64,000 nucleotides of DNA from Oscillospiraceae bacterium. GTDB lineage: Bacteria > Bacillota > Clostridia > Oscillospirales > Oscillospiraceae. Numbering within the stretch: position 1 is the first letter of the stretch; every line of letters starts with the position of its first letter. The notes below the pieces were generated by a model that saw only the letters and a program-made list of their open reading frames with translations, did not search any database and was not told where the DNA came from. Shown here one piece after another: positions 37,623 to 57,801 of the stretch. The translations under genes were made by a program, and so were the position numbers. Where the stretch lies: assembly GCA_015068495.1 (NCBI GenBank), contig SVKL01000008.1, positions 13,892 through 77,891 of the forward strand, given 5' to 3'.

Positions 37623-38837
37623 ATGATGGGCTCTGAAATGAAGGTCAAGGCTGTTGGCTTTTGTGATGGTGTCTCTGTTTCCGCTATTGCCCCGTTGATG
37701 AATGATTTGTCCGTTGATGACGTATCTGAATATGCTGTTTTTCCCGGCTTTTGTGATGTGCACGTGCATTTCCGAGAGCCGGGATTTTCTTATAAAGAGA
37801 CCATTGAAAGCGGTTCAAAGGCATCTGCGCGGGGCGGTTACACAGCGGTTTGTACAATGCCCAACTTAAACCCCGTGCCGGACAGCGTGGCACATTTGGA
37901 CGAGCAGCTGAAACTGATTGAGGAGCAGGCGGTGATTCACGTCTACCCCTACGGCGCGATTACAGTGGGTGAGAAAGGTGAGCTGCTTGCAGATTTAGAG
38001 GGTATGGCGCCCAACTGTATTGCTTTTTCCGATGACGGACGAGGTGTGCAGAGCGATGATATGATGCGGCAGGCTATGCGCCGTGCCAAGGCACTGGGCA
38101 AAATGATTGTTGCCCACTGTGAGGTAAACGAGCTGCTGAAAGGCGGCTATATCCACGATGGTCAGTACGCAGCGGCTCATAACCACAAGGGCATCTGCAG
38201 CGCCAGCGAGTACGAACAAATCGCAAGAGATTTGCGCCTAGTGAGGGAAATCGGCTGCGCCTACCACGTGTGCCACATCTCCACGAAAGAGAGTGTGGAG
38301 CTGATCCGGCAGGCGAAGGCGGAAGGCTTGGATGTGACCTGTGAAACCGGCCCTCACTATCTGACGATGGACGACAGCTTCCTGCAGGAGGACGGCAGAT
38401 TCAAAATGAATCCTCCTTTGCGGGATAAAGCTGACAGGGAAGCGCTGGTTGCCGGTATTGTGGACGGCACAATCGATATGATTGCCACTGACCACGCGCC
38501 CCACAGCGCAGAAGAAAAGAGCAAGGGCTTAGCCGGCAGCGCCTTCGGTGTGGTTGGTATTGAAACAGCCTTCCCGGTGATGTATACCCACTTGGTAAAG
38601 TCCGGCGTGATTACTCTTGAAAAGCTTATTGACCTACTGAGCAATAACCCCCGTAAACGGTTTGGTCTGCCGGCAGGAAATGATTTTACAGTGTGGAATC
38701 TGAGTAAAGAATTTACAGTAGACCCGGCGCAATTCCTGTCTATGGGTAAGGCGACGCCCTTTGCTGGCTGGAAGTTAAATGGTGAATGTTTGCTGACCGT
38801 CTGCGACGGCAAGGCAGTGTATAAATTGGAGGAATGA
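37623..38837 (+). CDS. pyrC: Dihydroorotase (type I)
   Basis: DVHVHFREPG, TMPN, FSDDG, HVCHIST, KMNPPLR, ATDHAPH. Confidence 0.94.
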   Translation: MMGSEMKVKAVGFCDGVSVSAIAPLMNDLSVDDVSEYAVFPGFCDVHVHFREPGFSYKETIESGSKASARGGYTAVCTMPNLNPVPDSVAHLDEQLKLIEEQAVIHVYPYGAITVGEKGELLADLEGMAPNCIAFSDDGRGVQSDDMMRQAMRRAKALGKMIVAHCEVNELLKGGYIHDGQYAAAHNHKGICSASEYEQIARDLRLVREIGCAYHVCHISTKESVELIRQAKAEGLDVTCETGPHYLTMDDSFLQEDGRFKMNPPLRDKADREALVAGIVDGTIDMIATDHAPHSAEEKSKGLAGSAFGVVGIETAFPVMYTHLVKSGVITLEKLIDLLSNNPRKRFGLPAGNDFTVWNLSKEFTVDPAQFLSMGKATPFAGWKLNGECLLTVCDGKAVYKLEE

Positions 38838-38840
38838 AAA

Positions 38841-41800
38841 ATGGCAAAGAGAACGGACTTAAAGAAAATTCTGATTATCGGCTCCGGTCCTATCGTAATC
38901 GGTCAGGCCGCTGAATTTGACTATGCAGGTACACAGGCTTGCTTGGCGCTGAAGGAAGAGGGCTACGAGGTTGTCCTGTGCAACTCCAACCCTGCAACCA
39001 TTATGACGGATACTACCATTGCCGACAAGGTGTATATGGAGCCTCTGACACTGGAATATGTGGCAAAGATTATCCGCTACGAGCGTCCCGATGCCATTCT
39101 GCCCGGCATCGGCGGACAGACCGGTCTGAATCTTGTTATGCAGCTGGAGAAGAAGGGCGTTTTGAAGGAATGCCGCGTGGAGCTGCTGGGTACTTCCAGT
39201 GAATCCATCGAGCGGGCTGAGGACAGAGAACTGTTCAAGGAGCTGTGCCAGTCCATCGGCGAGCCTGTCATTCCCTCCGAGATTACCTATTCTATCGAGG
39301 AAGCGAAAGCGGCGGCTAAGCGGATTGGCTATCCTGTGGTGCTTCGTCCTGCCTTTACCTTGGGCGGCACCGGTGGCGGCTTTGCATATAGTGAAGAAGA
39401 GCTGGTGGAAATCGGCTTAAACGCATTTAAGCTGTCTCCTGTGCATCAGGTGCTCATTGAGAAATCCGTCAAGGGTTATAAGGAAATCGAATTTGAGGTT
39501 ATGCGTGACGGCAACGATCACGCCATCACCATCTGCGGTATGGAAAACATTGACCCTGTAGGCGTCCATACCGGCGATAGCTTGGTGGTTGCGCCGATTA
39601 TGACTCTGAGCGACCACGATTTGAAGATGCTGAACGATTCTGCTATCAAGATCATCAAGGAATTGAAGATTGCAGGTGGCTGTAACGTGCAGTTTGCCCT
39701 GAATCCCAATAGCTCTGAATACTACCTCATTGAGGTAAATCCCAGAGTTTCCCGTTCTTCCGCTTTGGCATCCAAGGCTTCCGGCTATCCCATTGCCCGC
39801 GTAACGGCTAAAATTGCCGTGGGTATGGCGCTGGAGGACATTAAGATTGCCAACACCAACGCTGCTTTCGAGCCGAAGCTGGACTATGTCATTGCCAAGC
39901 TGCCCCGTTTCCCCTTCGATAAGTTCACCTCTGCAACCAACCTGCTGGGCACCCAGATGAAAGCCACCGGTGAGGTTATGGGTATCGGCTCCAATCTGGA
40001 AGAAGCGCTGTTAAAGGGTATCCGTTCTCTGGAAATCGGCGCAAACCACCTGTACCTGTCCAAGTTTGACAATATGAGCGTGGAGGAGCTGCTGGACTAC
40101 ATCAAGCAGTTCCGTTCCGATAACATCTTTGCTATTGCGGAACTGCTGTACCACGGTGTTTCTGTGGAGAAGATTCACGAAATTACACAAATTACACCCT
40201 ACTTCCTGGAATCCATTCGCAAGATTATCGATATGGAGGAAGTCCTTCGGGTTAAGGTAAACGACGTGGATGCCCTGAAGCAGGCAAAGGTTATGGGCTT
40301 CAGCGACAGATATGTTGCACGGCTGTGGAAGTGCGCAGAAATGGATGTTTACAAGCTGCGTAAGGCCAACAATATGTTCCCGGTATTCAAGATGGTGGAT
40401 ACCTGCCATACCGGTGCATACATTCCTTATTTCTACTCCTCCTACACCGGAGAGAACACCTCTGTTCTTACCGATAAAAAGAAAATTGTGGTGCTGGGCG
40501 CCGGTCCTATCCGTATCGGTCAGGGTGTGGAATTTGACTATTCCACCGTTCACTCTGTAATGACCATTCGGGATGCAGGCTACGAGGCCATCATCATTAA
40601 CAACAACCCCGAAACCGTTTCCACCGACTACACCACCGCTGACAAGCTGTACTTTGAGCCACTGACACCTGAGGATGTTATGAACATCATTGAGTTTGAG
40701 AATCCTGTGGGTGTGGTTGCATCCCTTGGCGGTCAAACGGCTATCAATCTTGCTCAGCCTTTGGATGACCGGGGTGTAAAGATTATCGGCACAGATTGCG
40801 CTGCCATCGACAGAGCAGAGGACAGAAATGCCTTTGAAAACCTGCTCAACGACCTGAACATTCCCCGGGCTAAGGGTCAGGCTGTTACCAAGCTGGAAGA
40901 CGGTATTGCCGCCGCAGCGGAGATCGGCTATCCTGTGCTGGTGCGTCCTTCCTTTGTGCTGGGCGGCCGGGCAATGCAGATTGTTGCCAACGAGCAGCAG
41001 CTGCGTCACTACTTGCGTACCGCGGTTGAAATTGACGAGGACAAGCCCGTCTTGGTGGATAAGTATATTGAAGGCCGTGAAGTGGAGATTGACGCCATTT
41101 GCGACGGCCGGGATGTGTTTGTTCCCGGCATTATGGAGCTGGTAGAGCGTACCGGCGTCCACTCCGGCGACTCCATTTCTGTCTATCCCACCTTCTCTAT
41201 TTCCAACAAGGTTAAGGGTATCATCCTGCAGTATGCCAAAAAGCTGGGCTTGGGCATCGGCATTGTGGGTCTGTTCAATATCCAGTTCATCGTGGATAAG
41301 GACGATAATGTGTTTATTATCGAGGTAAATCCCCGTTCCTCCCGTACCGTGCCGTTCCTGAGTAAGGCAACCGGCTATTCCTTGGCAGATATTGCCACCG
41401 AGGTTATTTTGGGCAAGAGCCTGAAGGAGCAGGGCCTGTTTGACATCTACCCCGATGAGAAGGATCGCTGGTATGCCAAAGCACCTGTGTTCTCCTTCAA
41501 TAAAATCCGCGGACTGGACGCTTATCTGTCACCTGAAATGAAGTCCACCGGCGAAGCCATCGGCTACGACAGCACGATGAACCGCGCTTTGTATAAGGCG
41601 CTGCAGGCCTCCGGTATGCACCTGCAGAATTATGGTACTGTGCTGGTTACCATTGCAGACAAGGATAAGGAAGAGGCCCTGCCTTTGATTCGCCGCTTCT
41701 ATCAGCTGGGCTTCAACATTGAAGCAACTGAGGGCACTGCGGACTTCTTGAAAGCAAACGGAATCCGTACCCACAAGCTGGGCAAGATCGGCGACGGCAG

Positions 41801-42008
41801 CGAAGAGATTCCCAATGCGCTGCGTCAGGGCCACATTGCCTACGTGATTAACACCAAAGACCCCGGCAGCAACGGCAGTGACGGTGTGCAGATCCGTCAG
41901 ATTGCCACCGAGCATAATGTTTCTCTGTTCACTGCGTTGGATACCGTAAAGGTGCTGCTGGACGTTTTGGAAGAAACTACGCTGACCATTTCTACCATTG
42001 ATGCTTGA
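38841..42008 (+). CDS. carB: Carbamoyl-phosphate synthase large subunit
   Basis: GSGPIVIGQAAEFDYAG, two ATP-grasp halves, IEVNPRVSRSS and IEVNPRSSRT, C-terminal MGS domain. Confidence 0.97.
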   Translation: MAKRTDLKKILIIGSGPIVIGQAAEFDYAGTQACLALKEEGYEVVLCNSNPATIMTDTTIADKVYMEPLTLEYVAKIIRYERPDAILPGIGGQTGLNLVMQLEKKGVLKECRVELLGTSSESIERAEDRELFKELCQSIGEPVIPSEITYSIEEAKAAAKRIGYPVVLRPAFTLGGTGGGFAYSEEELVEIGLNAFKLSPVHQVLIEKSVKGYKEIEFEVMRDGNDHAITICGMENIDPVGVHTGDSLVVAPIMTLSDHDLKMLNDSAIKIIKELKIAGGCNVQFALNPNSSEYYLIEVNPRVSRSSALASKASGYPIARVTAKIAVGMALEDIKIANTNAAFEPKLDYVIAKLPRFPFDKFTSATNLLGTQMKATGEVMGIGSNLEEALLKGIRSLEIGANHLYLSKFDNMSVEELLDYIKQFRSDNIFAIAELLYHGVSVEKIHEITQITPYFLESIRKIIDMEEVLRVKVNDVDALKQAKVMGFSDRYVARLWKCAEMDVYKLRKANNMFPVFKMVDTCHTGAYIPYFYSSYTGENTSVLTDKKKIVVLGAGPIRIGQGVEFDYSTVHSVMTIRDAGYEAIIINNNPETVSTDYTTADKLYFEPLTPEDVMNIIEFENPVGVVASLGGQTAINLAQPLDDRGVKIIGTDCAAIDRAEDRNAFENLLNDLNIPRAKGQAVTKLEDGIAAAAEIGYPVLVRPSFVLGGRAMQIVANEQQLRHYLRTAVEIDEDKPVLVDKYIEGREVEIDAICDGRDVFVPGIMELVERTGVHSGDSISVYPTFSISNKVKGIILQYAKKLGLGIGIVGLFNIQFIVDKDDNVFIIEVNPRSSRTVPFLSKATGYSLADIATEVILGKSLKEQGLFDIYPDEKDRWYAKAPVFSFNKIRGLDAYLSPEMKSTGEAIGYDSTMNRALYKALQASGMHLQNYGTVLVTIADKDKEEALPLIRRFYQLGFNIEATEGTADFLKANGIRTHKLGKIGDGSEEIPNALRQGHIAYVINTKDPGSNGSDGVQIRQIATEHNVSLFTALDTVKVLLDVLEETTLTISTIDA

Positions 42009-42070: not shown

Positions 42071-42808
42071 ATGAAACAATCGAGTTTTACTGTTGTCAGC
42101 AATACCTCTCTGACTGACAATGTTTATAAAATGGTTCTGCAGGGCGACGTATCGGCTATTACTGCGCCGGGCCAGTTTGTCAACCTCAAGCTGGAGGGCC
42201 TGTATCTGCGCCGTCCCATCTCCGTGTGTGATTTGGATGGGGACAAGCTGACCATTGTTTATAAGGCGGTAGGTAAGGGAACAGAGCAGATGTCCCGTAT
42301 GACAGCAGGGGAGAAGCTGGATATTCTCACCGGCTTGGGCAACGGCTATGACCTGAGCCTGTCCGGCGAGAAGCCTGTGCTGCTGGGTGGCGGCGTAGGC
42401 GTGCCTCCTATGTATCTGCTTGCCAAAGAATTGCTGAAACAGGGCAAAAAAGTTTCTGTTATCTTGGGATTCAACACAAAATCCGAGATTTTCTACGAAG
42501 AAGAATTTGAAAAGCTTGGCTGCAATGTAACCGTTACAACCGTGGACGGTAGCTTTGGCACAAAAGGCTTTGTCACCACTGCATTGGAAGGGGTGGACTA
42601 TTCCTACTTCTATACCTGCGGTCCTGAGCCAATGCTGAAGGCTGTATATAAGGCATCCAATACTTCTGGGCAGATGAGCTTTGAAAAGAGGATGGGGTGT
42701 GGCTTTGGCGCATGTATGGGCTGCTCCTGCAAGACCCTCACCGGCTACAAGCGTATCTGCAAGGAAGGCCCTGTGATGAAAAAGGAGGAAATTCTATGGG
42801 AAGATTAA
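42071..42808 (+). CDS. pyrK: Dihydroorotate dehydrogenase electron transfer subunit
   Basis: PGQFV, RRPIS, GGGVG, CGPEPM, MGCGFGACMGC 2Fe-2S motif. Confidence 0.94.
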   Translation: MKQSSFTVVSNTSLTDNVYKMVLQGDVSAITAPGQFVNLKLEGLYLRRPISVCDLDGDKLTIVYKAVGKGTEQMSRMTAGEKLDILTGLGNGYDLSLSGEKPVLLGGGVGVPPMYLLAKELLKQGKKVSVILGFNTKSEIFYEEEFEKLGCNVTVTTVDGSFGTKGFVTTALEGVDYSYFYTCGPEPMLKAVYKASNTSGQMSFEKRMGCGFGACMGCSCKTLTGYKRICKEGPVMKKEEILWED

Positions 42809-43707
42809 GTGTTGACCTGTGTGGAATTACCCTTGATAATCCTGTAATTCCTGCCTCCGGCACCTTCGGCTACGGCTATGAGTATGCTGAAATTTATGAT
42901 ATCAACTGCCTTGGCACGTTCTCTTTTAAGGGCACAACCAAGGAGCCCCGTTTCGGCAACCCTACGCCCCGGATCGCTGAATGTACCGCCGGTATGATCA
43001 ATGCCGTTGGCTTGCAGAATCCCGGTGTGGAAAAGGTTATTGCCGAGGAACTACCGAAGCTGAAAAAATGCTTCCACAAGCCTGTTATGGCAAATATCAG
43101 CGGTTTTGGGGTAGAGGAGTATGCCTACACCTGCGAAAAGCTGGATAAGGAGGCGCAAGTCGGCTGGCTGGAAGTGAACGTCAGCTGTCCCAATGTCCAC
43201 GGCGGCGGTATGAGCTTCGGTACTGACCCGAAAGCAGCCGCTGAGGTGACGAAGGCAGTAAAGAAGGTCACCACCAAGCCGGTGATTGTAAAGCTGTCCC
43301 CCAACGTGACGGACATCGTTTCTATTGCAAAAGCCTGTGAAGATGCCGGCGCTGACGGTATCAGCCTGATTAACACAATGCTGGGTATGCGCATTGACCT
43401 GAAAACCCGCAAGCCGGTAATTGCCAACAAGATGGGCGGCTTCTCCGGCGCAGCAATTTTCCCTGTGGCGGTGCGTATGGTCTATCAGGTCGCCAATGCC
43501 GTCAAGATTCCCGTGGTGGGTATGGGCGGCGTAAGCAGTGCTGAGGACGTGATTGAGATGATGCTGGCTGGCGCAACTGCCGTTGAGGTGGGCGCAGCAA
43601 ACCTTGTGAACCCCTGCATTTGTCGGGATATTATCGAAGAACTTCCCGCAGTTATGGATAAATACAGAATCAATACATTAAGTGAAATTATCGGAGGTGC
43701 GAAATAA
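42796..43707 (+). CDS. pyrD: Dihydroorotate dehydrogenase B catalytic subunit
   Basis: [36 protein letters not shown]; ATG 42796 after AGGAGG. Confidence 0.95.
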
Positions 43708-44405
43708 TGGGTAAGGACGTGATTGTAGCCTGTGATTTTGCCAGCGCAGAGCAGACCTTTGCGTTTTTGGACAAGTTCACCGGCCGGAAGCCTTTCGTGA
43801 AAATCGGCATGGAGCTGTACTACGCAGAAGGCCCTGCCATCGTCAAGGAAATCAAGGCAAGAGGTCATAAGATTTTCTTGGATTTGAAGCTCCACGACAT
43901 TCCCAACACTGTCAAAAAGGCAATGGCAGTTTTGCGGAATCTGGATGTGGATATCACAAACCTGCACGCCGCCGGCACCAAGAATATGATGCGCGCCGCC
44001 TTGGAGGGCTTGACCCGTGAGGACGGCACCCGTCCGCTGCTGATTGCTGTGACCCAGCTGACCTCCACCGATCAGGAGAGTATGGAAAAGGACCTGCTCA
44101 TTGAAAAGCCTATTGATCAGGTGGTTATGCACTACGCCAAATGCGCCGAAGAGGCAGGTCTCGACGGCATCGTATGCTCACCGCTGGAGGCAGGCAAGGT
44201 CCACGATACCTGCGGCAAGAGCTTTTTGACTGTTACCCCCGGTGTCCGCTTTGCTGACGGCGATGTGGGTGACCAGAAGCGGGTTATGACCCCTGCGCAG
44301 GCTAAGGAAATCGGCTCCGACTATATTGTTGTGGGCCGTCCGATTACTGCTGCCGCCGACCCCGTGGCCGCCTACGAGCGCTGCATTGATGAATTCTGCG
44401 ACTAA
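43707..44405 (+). CDS. pyrF: Orotidine-5-phosphate decarboxylase
   Basis: [34 protein letters not shown]. Confidence 0.96.
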
Positions 44406-44408
44406 AAT

Positions 44409-44487
44409 TGTAGGGACCGGCGTCCTCGACGGTCCTATTGCAGAAGTCCGCTTTGCTGACGGACTGTCCGGGAGGCCAGTCCCTACA
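44409..44487. repeat. Inverted doublet of GTAG-type REP units (REPIN/BIME-like)
   Basis: TGTAGGGACCGGCGTCCTCGACGGTCC (44409-44435) and the reverse complement of TGTAGGGACTGGCCTCCCGGACAGTCC (44461-44487). Confidence 0.75.
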
Positions 44488-44512
44488 CATTTATCTTCAA
44501 AGGAGAACCATT

Positions 44513-45166
44513 ATGGAAGCCTATAAAAGAGAATTCATTGAATTCCTGCAGGATGCAGGTGTGTTGAAATTTGGCGATTTTACAGCCAAATCCGGCCGTA
44601 AAATTCCTTATTTTGTCAATGCCGGTATGATTAAGACCGGTGACCAAATTACCAAAATGGGCGAGTTCTACGCCAAGGCTTATTTTGACAAGCTGGGTAA
44701 AAAGCAGGCTGTCCTGTACGGACCTGCCTATAAGGGTATTTCTCTGTCCATTTCTGCCGCTGTGGCGCTGTCCCGTAACGGTCTGAATGTTCCTTTCTTC
44801 TTTAACCGTAAGGAAGTGAAAGACCACGGTGAAGGCGGTACATTCGTAGGCTACGTTCCTCAGGCCGGCGAAGAAATCGTCATAATTGAAGACGTAATTA
44901 CAGCCGGCACTGCTATCCGTGAGTCTATGGAAATCCTCAGCCACTTGGATGGCACGAAAGTTATTGCCACCTTCATTATGGTTGACCGGAAAGAGAAGGG
45001 TCAGACCGAGAAGGGTGCTATGCAGGAGATTGAAGAGCAGTTCGGCTTCCCTGTGTACTCTGTTGTGGACGTTTATGACATTATCGAGTATTTGGAGGAA
45101 GACCCTGCCAACGAAGAAAACGTTACCCGTATTAAGAACTATCTGGCTGTGAATGGAGCGAAATAA
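44513..45166 (+). CDS. pyrE: Orotate phosphoribosyltransferase
   Basis: [40 protein letters not shown]; ATG 44513 after AAGGAG. Confidence 0.95.
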
Positions 45167-46254
45167 TGAGAAGCTTGATTGACATTGTAGATTTTTCCGT
45201 TGAGGAAATTCAGCAGCTGCTGGAGACTGCCTGCGACATCAGCGAAAATCCTGCAAAGTATGCAGAACGCTGCCGTGGCAAGAAGCTGGCAACGCTGTTC
45301 TATGAGCCTTCCACCCGTACCCGCCTTAGCTTTGAAGCGGCTATGTATGAGTTGGGCGGTAACGTGCTGGGCTTTAGCGAGGCGGCATCTTCTTCTGCCG
45401 CAAAGGGAGAGAGCATGGCAGACACTGCAAAAATGCTCTCCTGCTATGCGGATATTATGGCAATCCGTCATCCCAAGGAGGGTGCGCCTTTCGTAGCTGC
45501 AACCAATGCCACCATTCCCGTTATCAATGCCGGTGATGGCGGCCATTGCCACCCCACACAGACCTTGGCTGACCTGCTGACCGTTTATCGGGAAAACGGA
45601 AGACTCCACGATTTGACCATCGGCTGCTGTGGTGATTTGAAATATGGCAGAACGGTGCACTCCTTGATATCTGCTTTTTCACGGTACGACAATATCAAGT
45701 TTGTCCTGATTTCTCCCGAAGAGCTGAAGCTACCCAAGTACGTAAAGTATGAGGTGCTGGATAAAAACGGTATGCAGTATGTGGAAACAACCTCTTTGGA
45801 GGAGGCAATGCCGCAGCTGGATGTTTTGTATATGACCCGTATCCAACGGGAGCGCTTTGACAGCTTTGACGAGTATGAGCGTTTGAAGGACAGCTATATT
45901 CTGACACCTGAGAAGATGGCAGCGGCTAAGCCCACTATGCGCGTGCTGCACCCCCTTCCCAGAGTGAATGAAATCAGCGTAAAGGTGGATGAAGATCCCC
46001 GGGCAGCCTATTTCCGCCAGGCGCTGAACGGCAAGTATATGCGTATGGCGCTGATTCTCAAGCTGCTCAAAGAGGCTGAGGAAGGCAAGCAGATGGAGCC
46101 GGTGAATGCTGTGGAGAACAGTGCTCTTATCTGTGATAACCCCCGCTGTATTTCCTCTACCGAGCAGGAGCTTCCCCACAGATTTAAGCTGGTGGATGCA
46201 GAACGTGGCATTTACCGGTGCATCTATTGCGAGGGTAAAAAAACCTTGGGTTGA
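45166..46254 (+). CDS. pyrB: Aspartate carbamoyltransferase with a fused C-terminal PyrI-type zinc domain
   Basis: [29 protein letters not shown]; extension CDNPRC...RCIYCE. Confidence 0.94.
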
Positions 46255-46352: not shown

Positions 46353-46369
46353 GTTTACAGTGATGAATA

Positions 46370-46443
46370 TCGTTCTTTGCGACTGACGGAAATGTGGAGC
46401 ACCACAAGGGACCAAAGAATGTAAAAGCCGACCGTCTGGGCGC
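46370..46443 (+). ncRNA. ZMP/ZTP (pfl) riboswitch
   Basis: P1 TTCTTTG/CAAAGAA, GCGACTGACGGA junction, P2 GTGG/CCAC, P3 GCCGACCGTCTGGGC whose loop can pseudoknot with GACGG; upstream of purE. Confidence 0.92.
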
Positions 46444-46478
46444 ATTTGACAGTAACCTTAGTCAAGTGCGCCCTTTTT
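46438..46478 (+). terminator. Expression-platform terminator of the ZTP riboswitch
   Basis: GGGCGCATTTGAC / GTCAAGTGCGCCC + TTTTT; the 5-prime arm overlaps P3. Confidence 0.85.
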
Positions 46479-46497: not shown

Positions 46498-46986
46498 ATG
46501 AAAAAAGTTGGCATTGTAATGGGCAGTGACAGTGATTTGCCCATCGTCCAAAAGGCAATTGATATGCTAAAGAGCCTTGAAATTCCTTATGAGGTGCACA
46601 TCTATTCTGCCCACAGAACGCCTGTTGAAGCGCGGGATTTTGCGCTCAATGCAAGAGTAAACGGTTTTGGAGCGATTATCTGTGCTGCCGGTATGGCGGC
46701 GCATTTGGCAGGCGCGATTGCCGCCAACACAACCCTTCCTGTGGTGGGAATTCCCTGCAAGGGTGGAATGATGGACGGAATGGACGCGTTGCTGTCTACA
46801 GTGCAGATGCCCACAGGTATCCCTGTGGCTACCGTCGCGATTAATGGTGCGGCCAATGCGGCGCTTCTGTGTGCACAAATTTTGGCTGTTGAAGACAAGG
46901 GGTTGGCTGAAAAATTGGATGCCAAACGCAAGAGCGATGCCGCTAAGGTCCTGCAAAAGGATGCGGATATTGCTGCAAATCTGTAA
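46498..46986 (+). CDS. purE: AIR carboxylase / N5-CAIR mutase
   Basis: MGSDSD, SAHRTP, AGMAAHLAG, PVVGIP, QMPTGIPVATV. Confidence 0.96.
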   Translation: MKKVGIVMGSDSDLPIVQKAIDMLKSLEIPYEVHIYSAHRTPVEARDFALNARVNGFGAIICAAGMAAHLAGAIAANTTLPVVGIPCKGGMMDGMDALLSTVQMPTGIPVATVAINGAANAALLCAQILAVEDKGLAEKLDAKRKSDAAKVLQKDADIAANL

Positions 46987-47028
46987 TTTCTGAGTTATAC
47001 ACTCACTATGATAAAGGAGAAATTGATT

Positions 47029-49177: not shown

Positions 49178-50230
49178 ATGGAACATAAGAATTCCCAGTC
49201 TGCCAGCTATGCTGCTGCCGGTGTGGACATTACCGCCGGCTATAAGGCTGTTGAACTGATGAAGAAGCATATCAAGCGCACAAAAAATGAGGGCTGCTTG
49301 GACGATGTTGGCGGCTTTGGCGGCTGCTTTGGTCTGAACATTGCCGGTATGGAAGAGCCTGTGCTGGTCTCCGGTACAGACGGCTGCGGCACAAAAGTCA
49401 AGCTTGCTATTTTAATGGACAAGCACGATACCATCGGTATTGACGCGGTGGCAATGTGCGTTAACGATATTATCTGCTGCGGCGCAAAGCCTTTGTTTTT
49501 CCTTGATTACATTGCTTGCGGTAAGAATTATCCCGAGAAAATCGCGGCCATTGTGGGCGGCGTAGCAGAGGGCTGCGTTCAGTCCGGCGCAGCGCTCATC
49601 GGCGGTGAAACTGCCGAGCATCCCGGCTTGATGCCGCTTGAAGACTATGACCTTGCAGGCTTTGCAGTTGGTGTTGTGGACAAGAAGAAAATTATCGACA
49701 ACACCCGTATGGCAGCAGGGGATGTGGTGATTGCGCTGGCATCTACCGGTATCCATTCTAACGGTTTCTCTCTGTGCCGTAAGGTGTTTGATATTGATAA
49801 CAACCCGGCAGAGCTGTATGTTGCCCGTGAGGAGTTGGACGGTAAGAGTGTTGCAGAAGCGTTGCTCGTACCTACACGTATCTACGTAAAGTCCATCCTT
49901 GCTCTGTTGGAGCAGGTGGATGTAAAGGGTATCTCCCACATCACCGGCGGCGGCTTTTATGAGAATATTCCCCGTTCCATCCCCGATGGCTTGGGTGCAG
50001 TAATCGAAAAGAATGCTGTTAAGGTGCTGCCTATTTTCGATATGATTGCCAAGACCGGCAATATCCCTGAGCGTGATATGTTCAACACCTACAATATGGG
50101 TGTGGGTATGAGCGTCGTGGTAAAGCCTGAGGAAGTAGAGAAGGCATTGGAAATCCTTACCGCCCACGGGGAAAATGCCTATGTGATCGGTAAGATTGTA
50201 GCCTCTGACGAGAAGATTACCATTGTGTGA
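49178..50230 (+). CDS. purM: Phosphoribosylformylglycinamidine cyclo-ligase
   Basis: YAAAGVDI, GTDGCGTK, AMCVND, GGETAEHPG, SHITGGG. Confidence 0.97.
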   Translation: MEHKNSQSASYAAAGVDITAGYKAVELMKKHIKRTKNEGCLDDVGGFGGCFGLNIAGMEEPVLVSGTDGCGTKVKLAILMDKHDTIGIDAVAMCVNDIICCGAKPLFFLDYIACGKNYPEKIAAIVGGVAEGCVQSGAALIGGETAEHPGLMPLEDYDLAGFAVGVVDKKKIIDNTRMAAGDVVIALASTGIHSNGFSLCRKVFDIDNNPAELYVAREELDGKSVAEALLVPTRIYVKSILALLEQVDVKGISHITGGGFYENIPRSIPDGLGAVIEKNAVKVLPIFDMIAKTGNIPERDMFNTYNMGVGMSVVVKPEEVEKALEILTAHGENAYVIGKIVASDEKITIV

Positions 50231-50238
50231 GGTAGGAA

Positions 50239-50835
50239 ATGGTGAAAGCGAGAATTGCTGTGCTGGTGTCCGGCGGCGGCACGAACCTGCAGGCGCTGAT
50301 TGACGCGCAAGGCAGCGGAATTATTCACAGCGGAGAAATCTGCCTTGTGATTTCCAATAATCGGGATGCCTATGCTTTGCAGCGCGCGGCAAATGCGGGA
50401 ATAGCCACCGAGGTTGTCCTGAAAAAGGAACTGGGCAGCCAAGCCGCATTTGAAGAGAAAATCAAAGAATTGCTCACCGAAAATAGGATTGACATCATTG
50501 TTCTTGCGGGCTTTATGTCCATTTTAAGTGAGGCGTTCACCTCCTGCTATCCCAAGCGGATTCTCAATGTCCACCCGTCGCTGATTCCGTCTTTTTGCGG
50601 TGAGGGCTTTTATGGTCTCCGGGTTCACGAGGCAGCGCTTAATTATGGCGTGAAGGTCACCGGCGCAACCGTTCACTTTGTTAACGAGATTCCCGACGGC
50701 GGTGAGATCATTCTCCAAAAGGCTGTGGAAATTCAGCCGGAGGACACACCTGAAACCCTGCAAAAACGGGTGATGGAACAAGCAGAATGGAAGATTTTAC
50801 CTGCCGCAGTTGAGCAGGTTTGCAGTATGCTGTGA
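50239..50835 (+). CDS. purN: Phosphoribosylglycinamide formyltransferase
   Basis: SGGGTNLQA, LAGFM, NVHPSLIP, GATVHFV..DGG. Confidence 0.96.
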   Translation: MVKARIAVLVSGGGTNLQALIDAQGSGIIHSGEICLVISNNRDAYALQRAANAGIATEVVLKKELGSQAAFEEKIKELLTENRIDIIVLAGFMSILSEAFTSCYPKRILNVHPSLIPSFCGEGFYGLRVHEAALNYGVKVTGATVHFVNEIPDGGEIILQKAVEIQPEDTPETLQKRVMEQAEWKILPAAVEQVCSML

Positions 50836-50851
50836 GAAAGGAATTTGCAAT

Positions 50852-51565
50852 ATGAATGTTTATGAAGTTGGCTCTCTTGCTGAGAAGCTGTCTACCAATG
50901 TGTATCCCGGCCGTGGCATTGTGTTAGGTGTAACTCCCGACGGCACTAAGTCTGTTGCTGCTTATTTCATTATGGGCCGCAGCGTCAATAGTCGCAACCG
51001 TGTGTTTGTACAGGAGCCGGACGGTATCCGCACCGAAGCTCATGATCCCAGCCTGATGAAAGACCCTCATCTGATTATTTACCATCCTGTCCGTGAAGCA
51101 GGCTGTGGTTTGATTGTTACCAACGGTGACCAGACCGATACCATTTGGGAATACCTTGCCAAGGGCGAAAGCTGGGAAGCTGCTCTGCGTACCCGTTGTT
51201 TCGAAGATGACGGCCCTAACTGGACACCTCGTATTTCCGGCTTGCTGGCAGGTGACGGAAGCTACAAGATGTCCATTTTGAAGTCTGCTGATGCAGAGGG
51301 CACAGCCTGCGCAAGATTTTTCTATGAGTATCCTGCAATCGCCGGACTGGGTCACTTTATCCACACCTATGTGTGCGATGGTAACCCCGTAATCCCCACA
51401 TTCCAAGGGGAGCCGGAGCGTGTGGCTATGGATAACGATATGGATGCCTTTGCGGAAATGCTGTGGAACAACTTGAATGAAGACAATAAAATCTCCCTGT
51501 TCGTCCGTTACACTGATTTGAAGACCGGCAGCTACGAGCAGAAGATTTACAACAAACATAACTAA
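50852..51565 (+). CDS. purO: Stand-alone IMP cyclohydrolase, PurO-like (Ntn fold)
   Basis: YPGRGI, YFIMGRS.NSRNR, LIIY, VTNGDQTD, FEDD.PNWTPRISG; ATG 50852. Confidence 0.85.
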   Translation: MNVYEVGSLAEKLSTNVYPGRGIVLGVTPDGTKSVAAYFIMGRSVNSRNRVFVQEPDGIRTEAHDPSLMKDPHLIIYHPVREAGCGLIVTNGDQTDTIWEYLAKGESWEAALRTRCFEDDGPNWTPRISGLLAGDGSYKMSILKSADAEGTACARFFYEYPAIAGLGHFIHTYVCDGNPVIPTFQGEPERVAMDNDMDAFAEMLWNNLNEDNKISLFVRYTDLKTGSYEQKIYNKHN

Positions 51566-51577
51566 GGAGTAGGGAAG

Positions 51578-52762
51578 ATGAAAGAGTTTGAACTGAAATA
51601 CGGCTGTAACCCCAATCAAAAGCCTGCAAAGATTTATATGCACGACGGCACCGACCTGCCCATCCAGATTCTCAACGGCCGCCCCGGCTTTATTAATTTC
51701 CTGGATGCCTTCAACTCTTGGCAGCTGGTGAAGGAGCTGAAGGAAGCTACCGGTATGTGCGCTGTTACCTCTTTTAAGCACGTTTCTCCTACTTCTGCCG
51801 CTGTTGGCAAGAAGCTGCCTATAGAGCTGAAAAAGGCTTGCTTTGTGGAAGATATCGAAGGCTTGGATGAGAATCCTTTGGCTTGCGCATATGCCCGTGC
51901 CCGTGGTGCAGACCGTCTGTGCTCCTTTGGCGACTGGGTGGCACTGAGTGACACCTGCGACGCGCTGACAGCCAAGCTCATTGCCCGCGAGGTATCCGAC
52001 GGCGTGATTGCTCCCGGCTACACCGATGAGGCGCTGGAGATTCTGAAGACCAAACGTGGCGGCAACTATAACGTAGTTGCTATTGACCCCAACTTCGTTC
52101 CTGCTGAACAGGAAACCAAGCAGGTGTTCGGTATTACTTTCCAGCAGGGCCGCAACAACTTCAAAATTGACAATGCACTTTTGGAGAACATTGTTACTGA
52201 TAATAAGAACTTTACCGAGGACGCAAAGACTGACTTGATCATCTCCCTGATTACCCTGAAGTACACACAGTCTAATTCCGTCTGCTTTGCTTATGACGGA
52301 CAGGCTATCGGTGTTGGTGCCGGTCAGCAGTCCCGTGTGCACTGCGTAAGACTTGCAGGCGGTAAGGCTGACACTTGGTTCCTCCGCCAGCACCCCAAGA
52401 CCTTGAATCTTCCTTTCCGCGAGGACTTGGGCCGTCCCGGCCGTGACAATGCCATCGACGGCTATATCAACGGCAACGAGGAGGATGTCTGCGCTGAGGG
52501 TATCTGGCAGAACTACTTTACCACCCGTCCCGAGCCTCTGACCGAGGCTGAAAAGCGTGCATTCTTGGATGCGCAGACCGGTGTTGCGCTGGGTTCTGAC
52601 GCTTTCTTCCCGTTCCCGGACAGTATTAAGCGTGCTAAAGCCTCCGGTGTTTCCTACGTCGCTGAGCCCGGCGGCTCTATCCGTGATGACCTTGTGATTG
52701 CTGAGTGCAATAAGAATAATATGGTTATGGCATTCACCGGAATGCGTCTGTTCCACCACTAA
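51578..52762 (+). CDS. purH: AICAR transformylase lacking the IMP cyclohydrolase domain
   Basis: LKYGCNPNQ, FKHVSP, KYTQSNSV, GAGQQSRVHC, SDAFFPF, GMRLFHH; no MGS-like N-terminal domain. Confidence 0.92.
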   Translation: MKEFELKYGCNPNQKPAKIYMHDGTDLPIQILNGRPGFINFLDAFNSWQLVKELKEATGMCAVTSFKHVSPTSAAVGKKLPIELKKACFVEDIEGLDENPLACAYARARGADRLCSFGDWVALSDTCDALTAKLIAREVSDGVIAPGYTDEALEILKTKRGGNYNVVAIDPNFVPAEQETKQVFGITFQQGRNNFKIDNALLENIVTDNKNFTEDAKTDLIISLITLKYTQSNSVCFAYDGQAIGVGAGQQSRVHCVRLAGGKADTWFLRQHPKTLNLPFREDLGRPGRDNAIDGYINGNEEDVCAEGIWQNYFTTRPEPLTEAEKRAFLDAQTGVALGSDAFFPFPDSIKRAKASGVSYVAEPGGSIRDDLVIAECNKNNMVMAFTGMRLFHH

Positions 52763-52837
52763 AATACCTTTGCCACACCGTCTTTTGCGGTGTGGCAATC
52801 GGTCTGTTTTACGAATCTGACATTTTGGAGAGTATCT

Positions 52838-54106
52838 ATGAAAATATTGGTTGTTGGCGGTGGCGGAAGAGAACATGCCATCATTAAAAAACTGAAAGAG
52901 AATAAGACAGTTACAGAAATTTTTGCAACCCCCGGCAATGGCGGTATTGCCAAGGATGCTACCTGTGTAGACATCGGCGCAAAGGAGATTGATAAAATTG
53001 TTGCCTTTGCAGTTGAGAATGCCATTGACTATGCGGTGGTTGCTCCCGATGACCCTCTGGTGCTGGGTTGCGTAGACGCATTGGAGGAGAAGGGGATTCC
53101 TTGCTTTGGACCTCGCGCCAATGCTGCCATTATTGAAGGCAGTAAGGTTTTTTCCAAAAACCTGATGAAAAAATATAATATTCCCACTGCAGCGTATGAA
53201 GTGTTCACCGATATGGATGCGGCAATTTCCTATTTGGAAACTGCTCCAATTCCTACGGTCATCAAGGCTGACGGACTTGCATTGGGCAAGGGCGTTATTA
53301 TTGCGGAAACCCGTGAGGATGCCAAGGCTGCTGTGAAATCTATGATGTCCGATAAGGTCTTCGGCAAAAGCGGTGACCAGATTGTCATTGAGGAATTCCT
53401 CACCGGTCCTGAGGTGTCTGTGCTTGCCTTTACCGACGGCAAGACAGTGAAGCCTATGATTTCCTCTATGGACCATAAGCGGGCAGGGGATAACGATACA
53501 GGCCTCAACACCGGCGGCATGGGCACGGTTGCTCCCAACCCCTACTACACTGCCGATATTGCTAAGGTGTGTATGGAAACCATTTTCCTGCCTACCATCG
53601 CCGCAATGAATGCCGAGGGCCGTACCTTTAAGGGCTGCTTGTACTTTGGCTTGATGCTCACCCCCAACGGCCCTAAGGTTATTGAGTACAACTGCCGTTT
53701 CGGCGACCCGGAGACGCAGGTGGTGCTGCCGCTGCTGGAAAGTGATCTGCTCACCGTTATGCAGGCAACCACCAACGGCACCTTGGCAGAAACCGAGGTT
53801 AAATTTGCCGACAAGAACGCCTGCTGCGTGATTATGGCGTCCAAGGGTTATCCCACCGCCTACGAAAAGGGCTTTGAGATGACCGTTCCGGAGGCAATTT
53901 GGAATAATGTCTATGTGGCAGGCGCTGCATTAAAGGACGGAAAGCTTCTGACAAACGGCGGCCGTGTCCTTGGCGCAACTGCTGTTGCTGACACCTTAGA
54001 GAACGCCATTAACGAGGCTTATAAAATGGTAGAAACCATTCATTTTGACAATGCTTATTATCGTCACGATATTGGCGCGAAGGCTATGAAAGCCGGGAGG
54101 AATTAA
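52838..54106 (+). CDS. purD: Phosphoribosylamine--glycine ligase
   Basis: VVGGGGREHA, KADGLALGKGV, EYNCRFGDPE, TNGGRVL; ATG 52838. Confidence 0.97.
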   Translation: MKILVVGGGGREHAIIKKLKENKTVTEIFATPGNGGIAKDATCVDIGAKEIDKIVAFAVENAIDYAVVAPDDPLVLGCVDALEEKGIPCFGPRANAAIIEGSKVFSKNLMKKYNIPTAAYEVFTDMDAAISYLETAPIPTVIKADGLALGKGVIIAETREDAKAAVKSMMSDKVFGKSGDQIVIEEFLTGPEVSVLAFTDGKTVKPMISSMDHKRAGDNDTGLNTGGMGTVAPNPYYTADIAKVCMETIFLPTIAAMNAEGRTFKGCLYFGLMLTPNGPKVIEYNCRFGDPETQVVLPLLESDLLTVMQATTNGTLAETEVKFADKNACCVIMASKGYPTAYEKGFEMTVPEAIWNNVYVAGAALKDGKLLTNGGRVLGATAVADTLENAINEAYKMVETIHFDNAYYRHDIGAKAMKAGRN

Positions 54107-54108
54107 CA

Positions 54109-57100
54109 TTGGTTTATAGAGTATATGTAGAGAAAAAAGAAGCGCTTGCAAACGAAGCAAAGGCTCTTTTGAACGATGCCCGCAACCTGCTGGGGATTAA
54201 GGCGCTGGAGAATGTTCGCCTGCTGAACCGCTATGATGCAGAAAATATTACAAAAGAGCTGTTCGATTATGCAATCGATACCGTGTTTTCTGAGCCCCAG
54301 CTGGACATTGCCACAGCTGAATATGAGTTAGCAGGCGCTACGGTGTTTGCCGTTGAGCCGCTGCCCGGTCAGTTTGACCAGCGAGCCGACTCCGCTGCTC
54401 AGTGTATTCAGATTATTTCTCAAGGTGAGCGTCCGCTGATTCGCTCCGCTAAGGTGTACGGTCTGTACGGCAAGCTGACAGAGGAAGAAATCACCGCGAT
54501 TAAAAAACACGTGATTAACCCTGTGGAATGCCGTGAAGCAGAGCTGACCCTGCCCGAAACGTTGAAAGCAGATTACGCTATCCCGCAGTCCGTTGCTACC
54601 GTTGACGGCTTCATCGGATTAGACGAAAAGGGCCTTTCTGATTTGCTGGACAAGCTGGGTCTTGCGATGGATCTGGACGATTTGAAGTTCCTGCAGAACT
54701 ACTTCCGTGACGAAGAAAAGCGCGACCCTACGATTACCGAAATCCGTGTTGTGGATACCTACTGGTCTGACCACTGCCGTCACACTACCTTCTCCACCAT
54801 CATTGACGATGTAAAAATTTCCGATCCCGCAGTGGCTGCTGCCTACAAGCGTTATTTGGATGCCCGTGTGGAAGTCTATGGAGAAGAGAAGGCTGCAAAG
54901 CGTCCTCAGACACTGATGGATATTGCCACTATCGGCGCAAAGACTTTGAAGAAGCGTGGATTGCTGCCCGAGCTGGACGAGAGCGAGGAAATCAACGCCT
55001 GCTCTATCCACGTTACTGCAAAGGTAAATGGCGAAGATCAGGACTGGCTGCTGATGTTCAAGAACGAGACCCACAACCATCCCACCGAGATTGAGCCTTT
55101 TGGCGGCGCAGCCACCTGTATCGGCGGCTGTATCCGTGACCCTTTGTCCGGCCGTGCATACGTCCATCAAGCAATGCGTGTTACCGGCGCAGCTGATCCC
55201 CGCAAGCCTCTGAATGAGACCATTCCCGGCAAGCTGCCCCAGCGTAAGCTGTGTCAGACTGCCGCAGCCGGCTATTCCTCATACGGCAACCAAATCGGTC
55301 TTGCTACCGGTCACGTTGCAGAAATCTATCACGATGGCTACGCCGCAAAGCGCTTGGAGTGTGGCGCAGTTGTTGGCGCAGCGCCTGCCTACAACGTACG
55401 CCGTGAGCGTCCCGCAGCCGGCGATGTGGTTGTGCTGCTGGGTGGCCGTACCGGCCGTGACGGTATCGGCGGCGCTACCGGTTCTTCCAAGAGTCACAAT
55501 ATGAAATCCCTGACCACAATGGCTTCCGAAGTCCAAAAGGGTAATGCTCCCGAGGAACGGAAGATTCAGCGCTTGTTCCGGGATAGCGCTGTTACCCGTT
55601 TGATTAAGCGCTGCAACGACTTTGGCGCAGGCGGTGTGTCTGTTGCTATCGGTGAGTTGGCTGCCGGTCTGCAGATTGACTTGGATGCTGTTCGCAAGAA
55701 GTATGATGGCTTGGACGGTACCGAAATCGCTATCTCCGAATCTCAGGAGCGTATGGCAGTTGTGGTTGCAGCTGAGGATGCGGATACCTTTATCGCAGCA
55801 GCCCAGAAAGAAAATCTGGAAGCTTATCGTGTGGCTGTGGTCACCGAAGAAGAAAGAATGGTGATGGTCTGGAAGGGTCAGACAGTTGCAAATCTGTCCC
55901 GCGCATTTTTGGACACCAACGGCGCCAGCAAGCATACCAAGGTTGACGTTACCGAAAAGGACCTGTCCGTGCTGAGCAACGCCCTGTACGGCAGCCTGCG
56001 TGAGATGGCAGGGGATTTGAAGACTGCCAGCCGCAGAGGCCTTGTGGAGCGTTTTGACGGTAGTATCGGCGCAGGCTCTGTGCTGATGCCCTTTGGCGGC
56101 AAAACACAGACCACTCCCGCCCAAGCAATGGCAGCTGTGCTGCCCGTCCTGCCCGGTCAGGAAACCAGTCAGGGCAGTGTAATGGCTTGGGGTCTAGATC
56201 CCGATATGATGAGCGTGGATCCTTACACCGGCTCCCGCGCCGCCATCTATACTTCTATGGCAAAGCTGGTTGCAGCCGGCGCTGACTATAAGAAAGCTTA
56301 CCTGACCCTACAGGAGTTCTTTGAAAAGCTGAAAGCTGAGCCTGCCCGCTGGGGCAAGCCCTTTGCAGCGCTCCTTGGCGCACTGGATGCCCAGCTGGAG
56401 CTGGGTGCTGCTGCCATCGGCGGTAAGGATTCTATGTCCGGTTCCTTTATGGATATGGACGTGCCGCCCACGCTGATTTCTTTTGCAATCGCTCCCATTG
56501 ATAAGGAGCAGGTGCTCACTCCCGAATTTAAGACCGCCGGCAATCCGGTTTACCTCTTCGGACCTACCGATGAGACCGCTGAGAGCCAAAAGCAGGCTTG
56601 GGAATACTTCCACCAGCTGCACCTTGCCGGTAAAGTCAACGCCGGCTGGGCGGTGGAGAATGGCTTGGGCGAAGCGGTGATGAAGATGTCCTTCGGTAAC
56701 CGCATCGGTTTTGCCTCCTGCGGCGCTGTGGGCGAGGAATGGCACAAGAACCTCTACGGCTTTATTGTGGCTGAGCTGACCGAAGATGTTGACCTGCCCG
56801 GCGTGCTGAAGATTGGCGAAACCACTGCCGAAGCAGCAATTGTTTTGGACGGTGACAGCGCATCTATCGACGAGCTGCTTGCCATCAATGAAGGCATTTT
56901 GGAGGATGTATATACCACTGTTGTTCCTGAGGATAAGGGTCAGATTCCTGCCTTTAACTACACCGGCACGGTTGCGAAGGCACCTGCTGTAAAGTGTGCA
57001 AAGCCCAAGGTGCTGATCCCTGTATTCCCCGGTACCAACTGTGAGTTTGACTCCGCCCGTGCGGTTATTGCAGCAGGCGCTGACGCAGAAATCGCCGTAA

Positions 57101-57801
57101 TTCGCAACCTGACCGCTGATGATGTTGCCAAGAGCGTGGAAAGCGTAGCTGCGAAGATTGCAGACAGCCAGATGATTTTCATTCCCGGCGGTTTCTCCGG
57201 CGGTGACGAGCCGGACGGCTCTGCCAAGTTCATTACCGCCTTCTTCCGCAACCCTGCCATCAAGGAGCAGGTGACAAAGCTGCTGGAAGAGCGGGACGGC
57301 TTGATGTGCGGCATCTGTAACGGCTTCCAAGCGCTGATTAAGCTGGGCTTGGTGCCTTACGGCAAGATTATTGATACCGACGAGAATTGCCCCACCTTGA
57401 CCTTCAATACCATTTCCCGTCACCAGTCCAAAATTGTCCGTACCCGTATCGCATCCAACAAGTCGCCTTGGCTGAGGCTGATGAATGTGGGTGACGTTGT
57501 GAATGTTCCCATTTCCCACGGCGAGGGTCGCTTCTATGCATCTGAGGAATTGGCAATGAAATTGGCTGAAAACGGTCAGATTGCCACCCAGTATGTGGAC
57601 TTGGACGGCAATCCCACTATGGATACCGCTTTCAACCCCAACGGCTCTCTGTTTGCTATCGAGGGTATTACCTCTCCCGACGGCAGAGTCATCGGTAAGA
57701 TGGGTCACAGCGAGCGTATCGGCGCAGGCCTTTACAAGAACGTACCTGGTAACTACGATATCCGTATGTTTGAAGCCGCAGTTAAATATTTTAAGGGCTA
57801 A
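54109..57801 (+). CDS. purL: Fused large FGAM synthase (PurS-PurL-PurQ)
   Basis: WSDHCRH, KNETHNHPTEIEPFGGAAT, DFGAGG, ISESQERM; GATase FPGTNCE, GICNGFQ, GHSER. TTG start. Confidence 0.97.
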   Translation: MVYRVYVEKKEALANEAKALLNDARNLLGIKALENVRLLNRYDAENITKELFDYAIDTVFSEPQLDIATAEYELAGATVFAVEPLPGQFDQRADSAAQCIQIISQGERPLIRSAKVYGLYGKLTEEEITAIKKHVINPVECREAELTLPETLKADYAIPQSVATVDGFIGLDEKGLSDLLDKLGLAMDLDDLKFLQNYFRDEEKRDPTITEIRVVDTYWSDHCRHTTFSTIIDDVKISDPAVAAAYKRYLDARVEVYGEEKAAKRPQTLMDIATIGAKTLKKRGLLPELDESEEINACSIHVTAKVNGEDQDWLLMFKNETHNHPTEIEPFGGAATCIGGCIRDPLSGRAYVHQAMRVTGAADPRKPLNETIPGKLPQRKLCQTAAAGYSSYGNQIGLATGHVAEIYHDGYAAKRLECGAVVGAAPAYNVRRERPAAGDVVVLLGGRTGRDGIGGATGSSKSHNMKSLTTMASEVQKGNAPEERKIQRLFRDSAVTRLIKRCNDFGAGGVSVAIGELAAGLQIDLDAVRKKYDGLDGTEIAISESQERMAVVVAAEDADTFIAAAQKENLEAYRVAVVTEEERMVMVWKGQTVANLSRAFLDTNGASKHTKVDVTEKDLSVLSNALYGSLREMAGDLKTASRRGLVERFDGSIGAGSVLMPFGGKTQTTPAQAMAAVLPVLPGQETSQGSVMAWGLDPDMMSVDPYTGSRAAIYTSMAKLVAAGADYKKAYLTLQEFFEKLKAEPARWGKPFAALLGALDAQLELGAAAIGGKDSMSGSFMDMDVPPTLISFAIAPIDKEQVLTPEFKTAGNPVYLFGPTDETAESQKQAWEYFHQLHLAGKVNAGWAVENGLGEAVMKMSFGNRIGFASCGAVGEEWHKNLYGFIVAELTEDVDLPGVLKIGETTAEAAIVLDGDSASIDELLAINEGILEDVYTTVVPEDKGQIPAFNYTGTVAKAPAVKCAKPKVLIPVFPGTNCEFDSARAVIAAGADAEIAVIRNLTADDVAKSVESVAAKIADSQMIFIPGGFSGGDEPDGSAKFITAFFRNPAIKEQVTKLLEERDGLMCGICNGFQALIKLGLVPYGKIIDTDENCPTLTFNTISRHQSKIVRTRIASNKSPWLRLMNVGDVVNVPISHGEGRFYASEELAMKLAENGQIATQYVDLDGNPTMDTAFNPNGSLFAIEGITSPDGRVIGKMGHSERIGAGLYKNVPGNYDIRMFEAAVKYFKG

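Follow-up and report, generated by a model that had tools for sequence, protein, structure and literature searches.

The window analysed here, a stretch of 64,000 nucleotides from the draft genome of an Oscillospiraceae bacterium (contig SVKL01000008.1 of assembly GCA_015068495.1), carries at 37623-57801 on the forward strand two abutting operons that together form one supercluster for the synthesis of pyrimidines (pyr) and purines (pur). Judging from this locus and from the rest of the genome, the bacterium shares with many relatives the loss of glutamine-splitting parts at the points where nitrogen enters pyrimidines, purines and guanosine monophosphate (GMP), and most likely builds its nucleotides from ammonia. 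We put at about two in three the probability that the enzymes concerned take free NH3 directly, having no working glutaminase. They are a large subunit of carbamoyl phosphate synthetase (CarB) standing without the small subunit CarA, a PurF-like protein without the catalytic cysteine, and a GMP synthase (GuaA) without its glutaminase half. The genome (G000, the window coming from its contig C22) is a draft of 1.77 Mb in 40 contigs, 92.9% complete, and the absences reported for it below refer to this assembly. The nearest named records to the genes of the window are gut metagenome-assembled genomes (MAGs) labelled Faecousia sp. or Oscillospiraceae.

The PurF-like protein (47739..49163, + strand; 474 aa, starting MGGFFG) is encoded between purC and purM, where, as in many other genomes, it fills the only hole in an otherwise complete pur operon. 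As the sole candidate for the first step in that context, it is proposed to act as an ammonia-dependent phosphoribosylamine (PRA) synthase. Its glutamine site differs throughout from that of Bacillus subtilis PurF (1AO0): Gly stands at Cys1, Leu at Arg26, Val at Asn101 and Ser at Asp127, the Arg73/Tyr74 glutamine loop has gone with an 8-residue deletion, and of the pair Asn101/Gly102 only the Gly is kept. A start further upstream that could bring a cysteine to the N terminus was ruled out, as only 4 open codons precede the ATG and a strong ribosome-binding site (AAGGAG) lies directly before it. The protein scored 160.5 bits with TIGR01134, whose cut-off is 350, and was aligned over residues 76-392 only; no dedicated model for it exists in NCBIfam. 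Profile searches and tblastn found no second or canonical PurF in G000. The machinery that handles phosphoribosyl pyrophosphate (PRPP) is present, including the PRPP motif DDSIVRGT, the flexible loop (K309-F318) and the four Fe-S cysteines, all of them invariant across the PurF-like family, and an insertion of ~24 residues follows the third cluster cysteine.

An AlphaFold model of the protein (mean predicted local distance difference test score, pLDDT, of 80; mostly >85 in the N-terminal domain) consists of a domain of the N-terminal nucleophile (Ntn) type and a type-I phosphoribosyltransferase (PRTase) domain, and was matched by Foldseek to 1AO0, 6LBP and 1ECB with template-modelling (TM) scores of 0.74-0.77. 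With PurF of the B. subtilis type, which has a 4Fe-4S cluster (1AO0, 1GPH; TM 0.74-0.76), it shares the two-domain fold, the PRPP motif, the flexible loop, the four cluster cysteines and the position in the pur operon; unlike that enzyme, it has no propeptide as well as no Cys1, and the glutamine-binding residues are replaced or deleted as described above.

Selection on the protein was estimated as the ratio of non-synonymous to synonymous substitution rates (dN/dS) against a relative (L167) that is 91% identical and has the same gene order as the window. This ratio was 0.048 for the N-domain and 0.028 for the PRTase domain, and it lay at 0.02-0.08 for every pyr and pur gene compared. Orthologues in 20 genomes of the order share 54-73% identity with the window protein (54-86% over all the sequences compared), and the canonical PurFs of those same genomes only ~28%. 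In 91 sequences of the family the former glutamine pocket is invariant at D22-Y-H24-S-H26-L-G, H48, P54-F-R56, F59, I75, D77, Q81-P, N102 and N127; position 2 is Gly in 89 of the 91, Ser in 2 and Cys in none. A relocated nucleophile at Cys74 was weakened as a candidate by the conservation of this residue in only 86% of the sequences. On the evidence of its sequences, the PurF-like protein thus belongs to an old and well conserved family, and its N-domain is a remodelled and maintained structure, not a dead and eroding one, because dN/dS is low, the pocket residues are invariant and the model matches PurF. An earlier note on this DNA had described a PurF with a dead glutaminase domain; the loss of Cys1 and of the glutamine-site residues was confirmed, but decay of the domain was not, as it is conserved and has invariants of its own.

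Many of the sampled genomes carry both the PurF-like protein and a canonical PurF. The Cys-less and the canonical Cys1 gene are adjacent in one operon at G099:C4:1480738-1483612, G019:C7:63670-66402 and G118:C30:54934-57602, an arrangement that hints at two isozymes serving different nitrogen regimes, or else at a mixed oligomer.

The carB gene of the window (38841..42008, + strand) encodes a full-length large subunit of 1055 aa (NF003671, 1441 bits; TIGR01369, 1403 bits) with all the Pfam domains, that is two ATP-grasp halves, the oligomerisation domain and the MGS-like allosteric domain. It starts at the synthetase domain, without fused glutaminase-like N-terminal domains. Its ATG lies 3 nt past the stop codon of pyrC, so there is no room for carA between them, and CarA was not found elsewhere in G000 (best TIGR01368 match 24.6 bits, no PF00988 match, no tblastn match with the CarA of a relative), in agreement with the earlier claim of a CarB without carA. 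Carbamate kinase was considered as an alternative source of carbamoyl phosphate, and none was found in G000 (best match 30 bits).

The claim that the contacts of this CarB with the small subunit were eroded did not hold. dN/dS is 0.031 for the whole protein and 0.023 for residues 1-400, and in the alignment Cys232, His243, Ala251 and Ala314, which we take to be residues of the internal ammonia tunnel, are the same as in 1BXR. The protein departs from CarA-partnered CarBs in clade-specific changes at 260-269, 329-367, 386-393, 428, 452 and 517-524, two of them 2-residue deletions, where the CarA-partnered proteins are invariant; conservation is not relaxed. The window CarB has the full length of its counterpart in CarAB of Escherichia coli (1BXR, 1JDB), with 60-65% similarity in the carboxyphosphate domain, but CarA was not found in G000 and the orphan clade has its own substitutions and small deletions. 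Carbamoyl phosphate synthetase I of animal mitochondria (5DOT, 5DOU) is a CarB-like synthetase that uses free ammonia, as is proposed here for the orphan CarB, and its synthetase part is matched by the window CarB with 608 bits; that enzyme still has an inactivated glutaminase-like domain fused to it and requires N-acetylglutamate, whereas in G000 the glutaminase subunit is absent altogether.

In a tree of 41 CarB sequences, the orphan CarBs formed one clade of 18 rows with short branches (SH-like approximate likelihood ratio test support, SH-aLRT, of 99), and the window CarB fell within it. Thirteen of the 18 rows came from genomes without carA, and the other 5 were a second CarB beside carAB. 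The sister group was a pyr-type CarB with carA still adjacent, and the other carA-linked CarBs made up the opposite clade. The window CarB has as its nearest relative the CarB of G013, from another family (85% identity), rather than the orphan CarB of G043, which belongs to its own family. This suggests either movement of the cluster between lineages or extreme conservation. In seven sampled genomes, orphan carB and the PurF-like gene share a contig at a distance of 6-14 kb, and the full pyr-pur supercluster recurs in several MAGs. With a single clade and a recurring supercluster, the orphan state seems to go back to a single old event, with inheritance or transfer afterwards, and not to repeated local loss with decay; the orphan CarB is a member of a single conserved clade rather than a recently widowed, decaying subunit.

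A separate peculiarity concerns the carA-linked CarB, which in many relatives has a diaminopimelate epimerase (DapF) domain fused to its C terminus, giving a protein of 1343 aa (for example, L165:13-4044 of G010). About 40 other CarB open reading frames (ORFs) of 1340-1375 aa, like this fusion, occur in the sample of the order.

Glutaminase parts are scarce in the rest of the genome as well. Only two class-I glutamine amidotransferase (GATase; PF00117) domains were found in G000, in HisH and in a C26-type protein adjoining an EamA transporter. The earlier note had named guaA and pyrG as genes worth inspecting, and both extended the pattern beyond the two steps that it had proposed. GuaA (G000:C19, L009:1438-2439) is a protein of 333 aa that aligns to 194-512 of the full-length model, with a GNAT gene upstream. 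It keeps the ATP-pyrophosphatase and dimerisation domains (TIGR00884, 439.7 bits against a cut-off of 338.75) and is without the N-terminal class-I GATase domain (TIGR00888), and tblastn matched only residues 210-541 of the GuaA of a relative. A separate GATase subunit was not found in G000; the lone weak candidate reached 59 bits against a cut-off of 198, and its occurrence among genomes is unrelated to GATase-less GuaA. More than 100 near-identical 333-aa GuaA models exist in other assemblies, where those that are named at all are called 'glutamine-hydrolyzing GMP synthase'. The two-subunit archaeal GMP synthase likewise has a stand-alone ATP-pyrophosphatase and dimerisation protein of ~330 aa, but the gene of its GATase subunit has no counterpart that could be found in G000. 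The C26-type GATase (L006:1288-1947) was ruled out as a shared stand-alone glutaminase, being present in 47 of the 121 genomes, from 30 families of the same order, that were sampled for comparison, with no relation to the traits discussed here.

The gene of cytidine triphosphate (CTP) synthase, pyrG, was not found in G000 by the hidden Markov model TIGR00337, by tblastn or by phmmer at maximum sensitivity. A diverged or trimmed PyrG was rejected too, since phmmer with its N and C halves returned nothing but ParA, radical-SAM and DJ-1 proteins. A true udk is encoded in G000. Salvage through Udk was nevertheless ruled out as a general account of the loss of pyrG, as only 5 of the 50 sampled genomes without pyrG have a true udk, and G013 and G016 are without both genes.

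Across the comparative sample, carB was present and carA not found in 22 of the 121 genomes, the PurF-like protein was the only PurF in 28, the GATase domain of GuaA was missing in 46 and pyrG in 50. Among genomes with both carB and some PurF, the PurF-like protein was the sole PurF in 14 of 22 with orphan CarB and in 13 of 82 others (odds ratio 9.3), so the co-occurrence of orphan CarB and Cys-less PurF asked about in the earlier note is real. GATase-less GuaA was found in 41 of the 50 genomes without pyrG and in 5 of the 71 others (odds ratio 60), and pyrG was missing in 20 of the 22 genomes with orphan CarB. All four traits switch together within families f1, f14, f15, f17, f19 and f25. The same pattern was observed in genomes that are 98-100% complete (G043, G013, G016, G094 and G113); three of these, G013, G016 and G094, have one class-I GATase each, of the size of HisH, compared with seven in a control genome from the window's own family (G014). 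Neither carA nor a Cys1-containing purF, whose presence elsewhere would according to the earlier note refute the idea, was found in G000 or in the 98-100% complete relatives with the same genes. Outside the sample, carA, canonical PurF and pyrG were not found in two MAGs with the same supercluster (G124 and G125). In the cultured Evtepia gabavorous KLE1738, the PurF-like protein is the sole PurF, pyrG was not found and carA is kept.

The nitrogen donor and the route of NH3 entry are what we infer from the gene content, residue changes, conservation, phylogeny and co-occurrence observed in these comparisons. The orphan CarB would make carbamoyl phosphate from bicarbonate, 2 ATP and NH3, the latter entering the intact internal tunnel at the surface that is normally capped by CarA. 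The Cys-less PurF would convert PRPP and NH3 into PRA. Its Ntn-like domain may be retained as a helper in building the PRTase active site and channel, with the old pocket relined by the invariant D22, Y23, H24, H26, H48, R56, D77 and N127, and the deletion of the glutamine-closing loop would plausibly open the mouth of the channel to solvent. GuaA, reduced to its ATP-pyrophosphatase half, would aminate xanthosine monophosphate with NH3. Nitrogen itself would be assimilated via glutamate dehydrogenase (C29:23139) and one type-III glutamine synthetase (C13:94059), both of which are encoded in G000. Neither an Amt transporter nor the Glu_synthase domain of glutamate synthase (GOGAT) was detected in G000, which fits a high-ammonia gut niche.

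The use of free NH3 by CarB, the PurF-like protein and GuaA is favoured by elimination, because no partner glutaminase was found, and by the retention of the catalytic machinery under strong purifying selection. It also agrees with the established enzymology of Cys1-substituted PurF, of isolated CarB and of the ATP-pyrophosphatase of GMP synthase. Isolated CarB and the ATP-pyrophosphatase domain of GMP synthase are active with ammonia. According to PMC3261824 (citing Mei and Zalkin 1989), replacement of Cys1 in E. coli PurF abolishes the use of glutamine and spares ammonia-dependent synthesis of PRA, the mode proposed here for the PurF-like protein. Those mutants are single-residue laboratory variants, whereas the PurF-like protein represents a natural, old and widespread family with a rebuilt pocket that serves as the sole PurF.

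Several points weigh against so simple a switch to ammonia. PurL, HisH and AsnB keep intact glutaminase sites (in G000, AsnB has its Cys), so glutamine is still made and used; for this reason the argument of the earlier note that glutamine is spared is incomplete. PurL is a large single-chain protein (54109..57801, + strand; TIGR01857, 1716 bits) whose C-terminal Cys/His/Glu triad is indeed intact, as had been noted, with GICNGFQ at residue 1068 and GHSER at residue 1199, and it is therefore probably still glutamine-dependent. The alternative raised in the earlier note, a supply of ammonia to PurF from the GATase domain of PurL, found no support. The invariant remodelled pocket of the PurF-like protein suggests that it binds something, not necessarily NH4+, and the presence of this protein beside canonical PurF in many genomes may point to a role other than simple replacement. 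pyrG is lost outright and not trimmed to its synthetase domain, which a simple ammonia switch does not predict. Related genomes are not independent, and the Fisher P values therefore overstate the association of the traits. Finally, G000 is an incomplete draft, and some of the absences of glmS, GOGAT and Amt may be owed to the missing 7% of the genome: glmS, also listed for inspection earlier, was not found in G000, yet it is present in relatives with the same traits (G043, G013 and G094), and a GOGAT domain is present in G122. The idea of a parallel loss of glutamine dependence at two committed steps thus survived the genomic checks, and its details concerning decay need revision.

A further-reaching possibility, which we regard as rather unlikely, is that nucleotide synthesis in these bacteria is distinct and largely independent of glutamine, that the N-domain of the PurF-like protein is a new functional site and that CTP comes from an enzyme not homologous to PyrG. 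The N-domain would then serve as a site for the capture or deprotonation of NH4+, or as a metal-dependent amide-hydrolysing site on D22, H24, H26, H48 and D77. A search of the flanks of pur and pyr genes at 80 loci for a conserved partner or a substitute for PyrG gave none; only formate-tetrahydrofolate ligase and spurious ORFs recur there.

It seems improbable to us that the enzymes still use an amide donor, either through a new hydrolytic or ligand site that the invariant HxH, His, Asp and Arg residues would form in the PurF-like N-domain, or through a non-class-I glutaminase that docks on CarB or GuaA. In favour of this, the former glutaminase domain is constrained like a catalytic domain and has an invariant pocket, and the invariants specific to the orphan CarB clade at 260-269, 329-367 and 517-524 could form a new interface. 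There is, however, no nucleophile at position 2 of the PurF-like protein and no fully conserved one at Cys74, and the protein has lost the glutamine loop together with the oxyanion Asn and the Asp that contacts the alpha-amino group. Nor does any extra conserved gene accompany the operons across the 80 loci, while the one GATase left unassigned is distributed independently of the traits and three nearly complete genomes make do with a single class-I GATase.

Equally doubtful, or slightly more so, is a PurF-like protein that acts as a pseudoenzyme or regulator, with PRA made otherwise (for example, non-enzymatically from ribose-5-phosphate and ammonia) or with nucleotides obtained by salvage and little flux through the de novo pathway. 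The absence of pyrG means that cytidine nucleotides at least may be salvaged, for which G000 has udk; the genomes are small (1.4-2.3 Mb), and the PurF-like protein coexists with canonical PurF in many of them. Against this stand the invariance of the PRTase catalytic motifs, flexible loop and Fe-S ligands, the place of the gene in a conserved operon controlled by a ZTP riboswitch, the low dN/dS of all the pyr and pur genes compared and the 28 genomes in which there is no other PurF. An artefact of assembly, with carA, canonical purF, pyrG and the GATase half of guaA all lying in the unassembled ~7%, is very improbable: although G000 is a draft in 40 contigs from which glmS and the GOGAT domain of some relatives are also missing, the same combination recurs in 98-100% complete genomes, the GuaA ORF can be seen to begin with the ATP-pyrophosphatase domain just after the GNAT gene and has >100 near-identical counterparts in other assemblies, and the CarB of G000 falls within the orphan clade.

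Direct use of free NH3 therefore remains our preferred reading, and its chemistry is known; the unexpected parts are the correlated pattern of four traits and the missing CTP synthase. In the searchable literature, no description was found of a Cys-less PurF family that serves as sole PurF, of a bacterial carbamoyl phosphate synthetase consisting of an orphan CarB, of a GATase-less bacterial GuaA or of Clostridia without pyrG. Annotation pipelines label these proteins 'amidophosphoribosyltransferase' and 'glutamine-hydrolyzing GMP synthase'; the nitrogen donor in metabolic models of many Clostridia from gut and rumen is therefore probably wrong. The pattern offers a reason, at the level of genes, for the dependence on free ammonia that many Firmicutes of the gut and rumen show, as is familiar from the rumen literature. 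It would also represent a repeated natural reversal of the usual evolutionary trend towards glutamine amidotransferases. In ~40% of the sampled order no CTP synthase was found, and this lack, which is tightly coupled to the other traits, points to widespread dependence on cytidine or to an undiscovered route to CTP. A cultured carrier of the Cys-less PurF as sole PurF is available in E. gabavorous KLE1738.

The remaining genes of the supercluster, all on the + strand, are arranged in the order pyrC-carB-pyrK-pyrD-pyrF-pyrE-pyrB, followed by a ZMP/ZTP riboswitch and then by purE-purC-PurF-like-purM-purN-purO-purH-purD-purL, with intergenic gaps of -26 to 62 nt within each operon. The pyr operon opens with pyrC for dihydroorotase (37623..38837; NCBIfam dihydroorotase models, 501 bits). 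Downstream of carB lie the genes of the electron-transfer (pyrK, 42071..42808) and B-type catalytic (pyrD, 42799..43707; NF005574, 437 bits) subunits of dihydroorotate dehydrogenase; the start codon of pyrD is approximate, as the model match begins at residue 35 of an ORF starting at 42697. They are followed by pyrF for orotidine monophosphate decarboxylase (43707..44405), pyrE for orotate phosphoribosyltransferase (44438..45166) and pyrB (45166..46254; TIGR00670, 353 bits) for aspartate transcarbamoylase, the proposed consumer of the carbamoyl phosphate made by CarB.

PyrB has a fused C-terminal zinc-binding domain of PyrI (PF02748, PyrI_C, residues 321-357) without the PyrI allosteric domain, and the PyrB of the relative L167 has the same 362-aa form.

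The 243-nt gap upstream of purE contains the riboswitch (46369..46448; Rfam RF01750, 60.8 bits against a gathering score of 39), and from this position the pur operon holding the Cys-less PurF is predicted to be regulated by the folate and 5-aminoimidazole-4-carboxamide ribonucleotide (AICAR) signal. The genes purE and purC occupy 46498..47715, and purM, purN, the gene of a PurO-type inosine monophosphate (IMP) cyclohydrolase, a purH restricted to AICAR formyltransferase and purD occupy 49178..54106. The late purine steps are archaeal in style, with the PurO-type cyclohydrolase (PF07826) and the formyltransferase-only PurH at 50810-52762 and no bifunctional PurH. The reading frames of purN and purO overlap by 26 nt, which makes the start of purO uncertain.

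Two other features were noticed in the window outside the supercluster. A glycine riboswitch aptamer (26993-27081, - strand) lies directly upstream of glyA for serine hydroxymethyltransferase (25644-26897, - strand), an unusual target of this riboswitch compared with the common gcv genes. At 33168-33929, 3.7 kb upstream of the pyr operon, a TtcA-like PP-loop ATPase is encoded, putatively an enzyme of the pyrimidine-activating type (180 bits, below the cut-off of 272).

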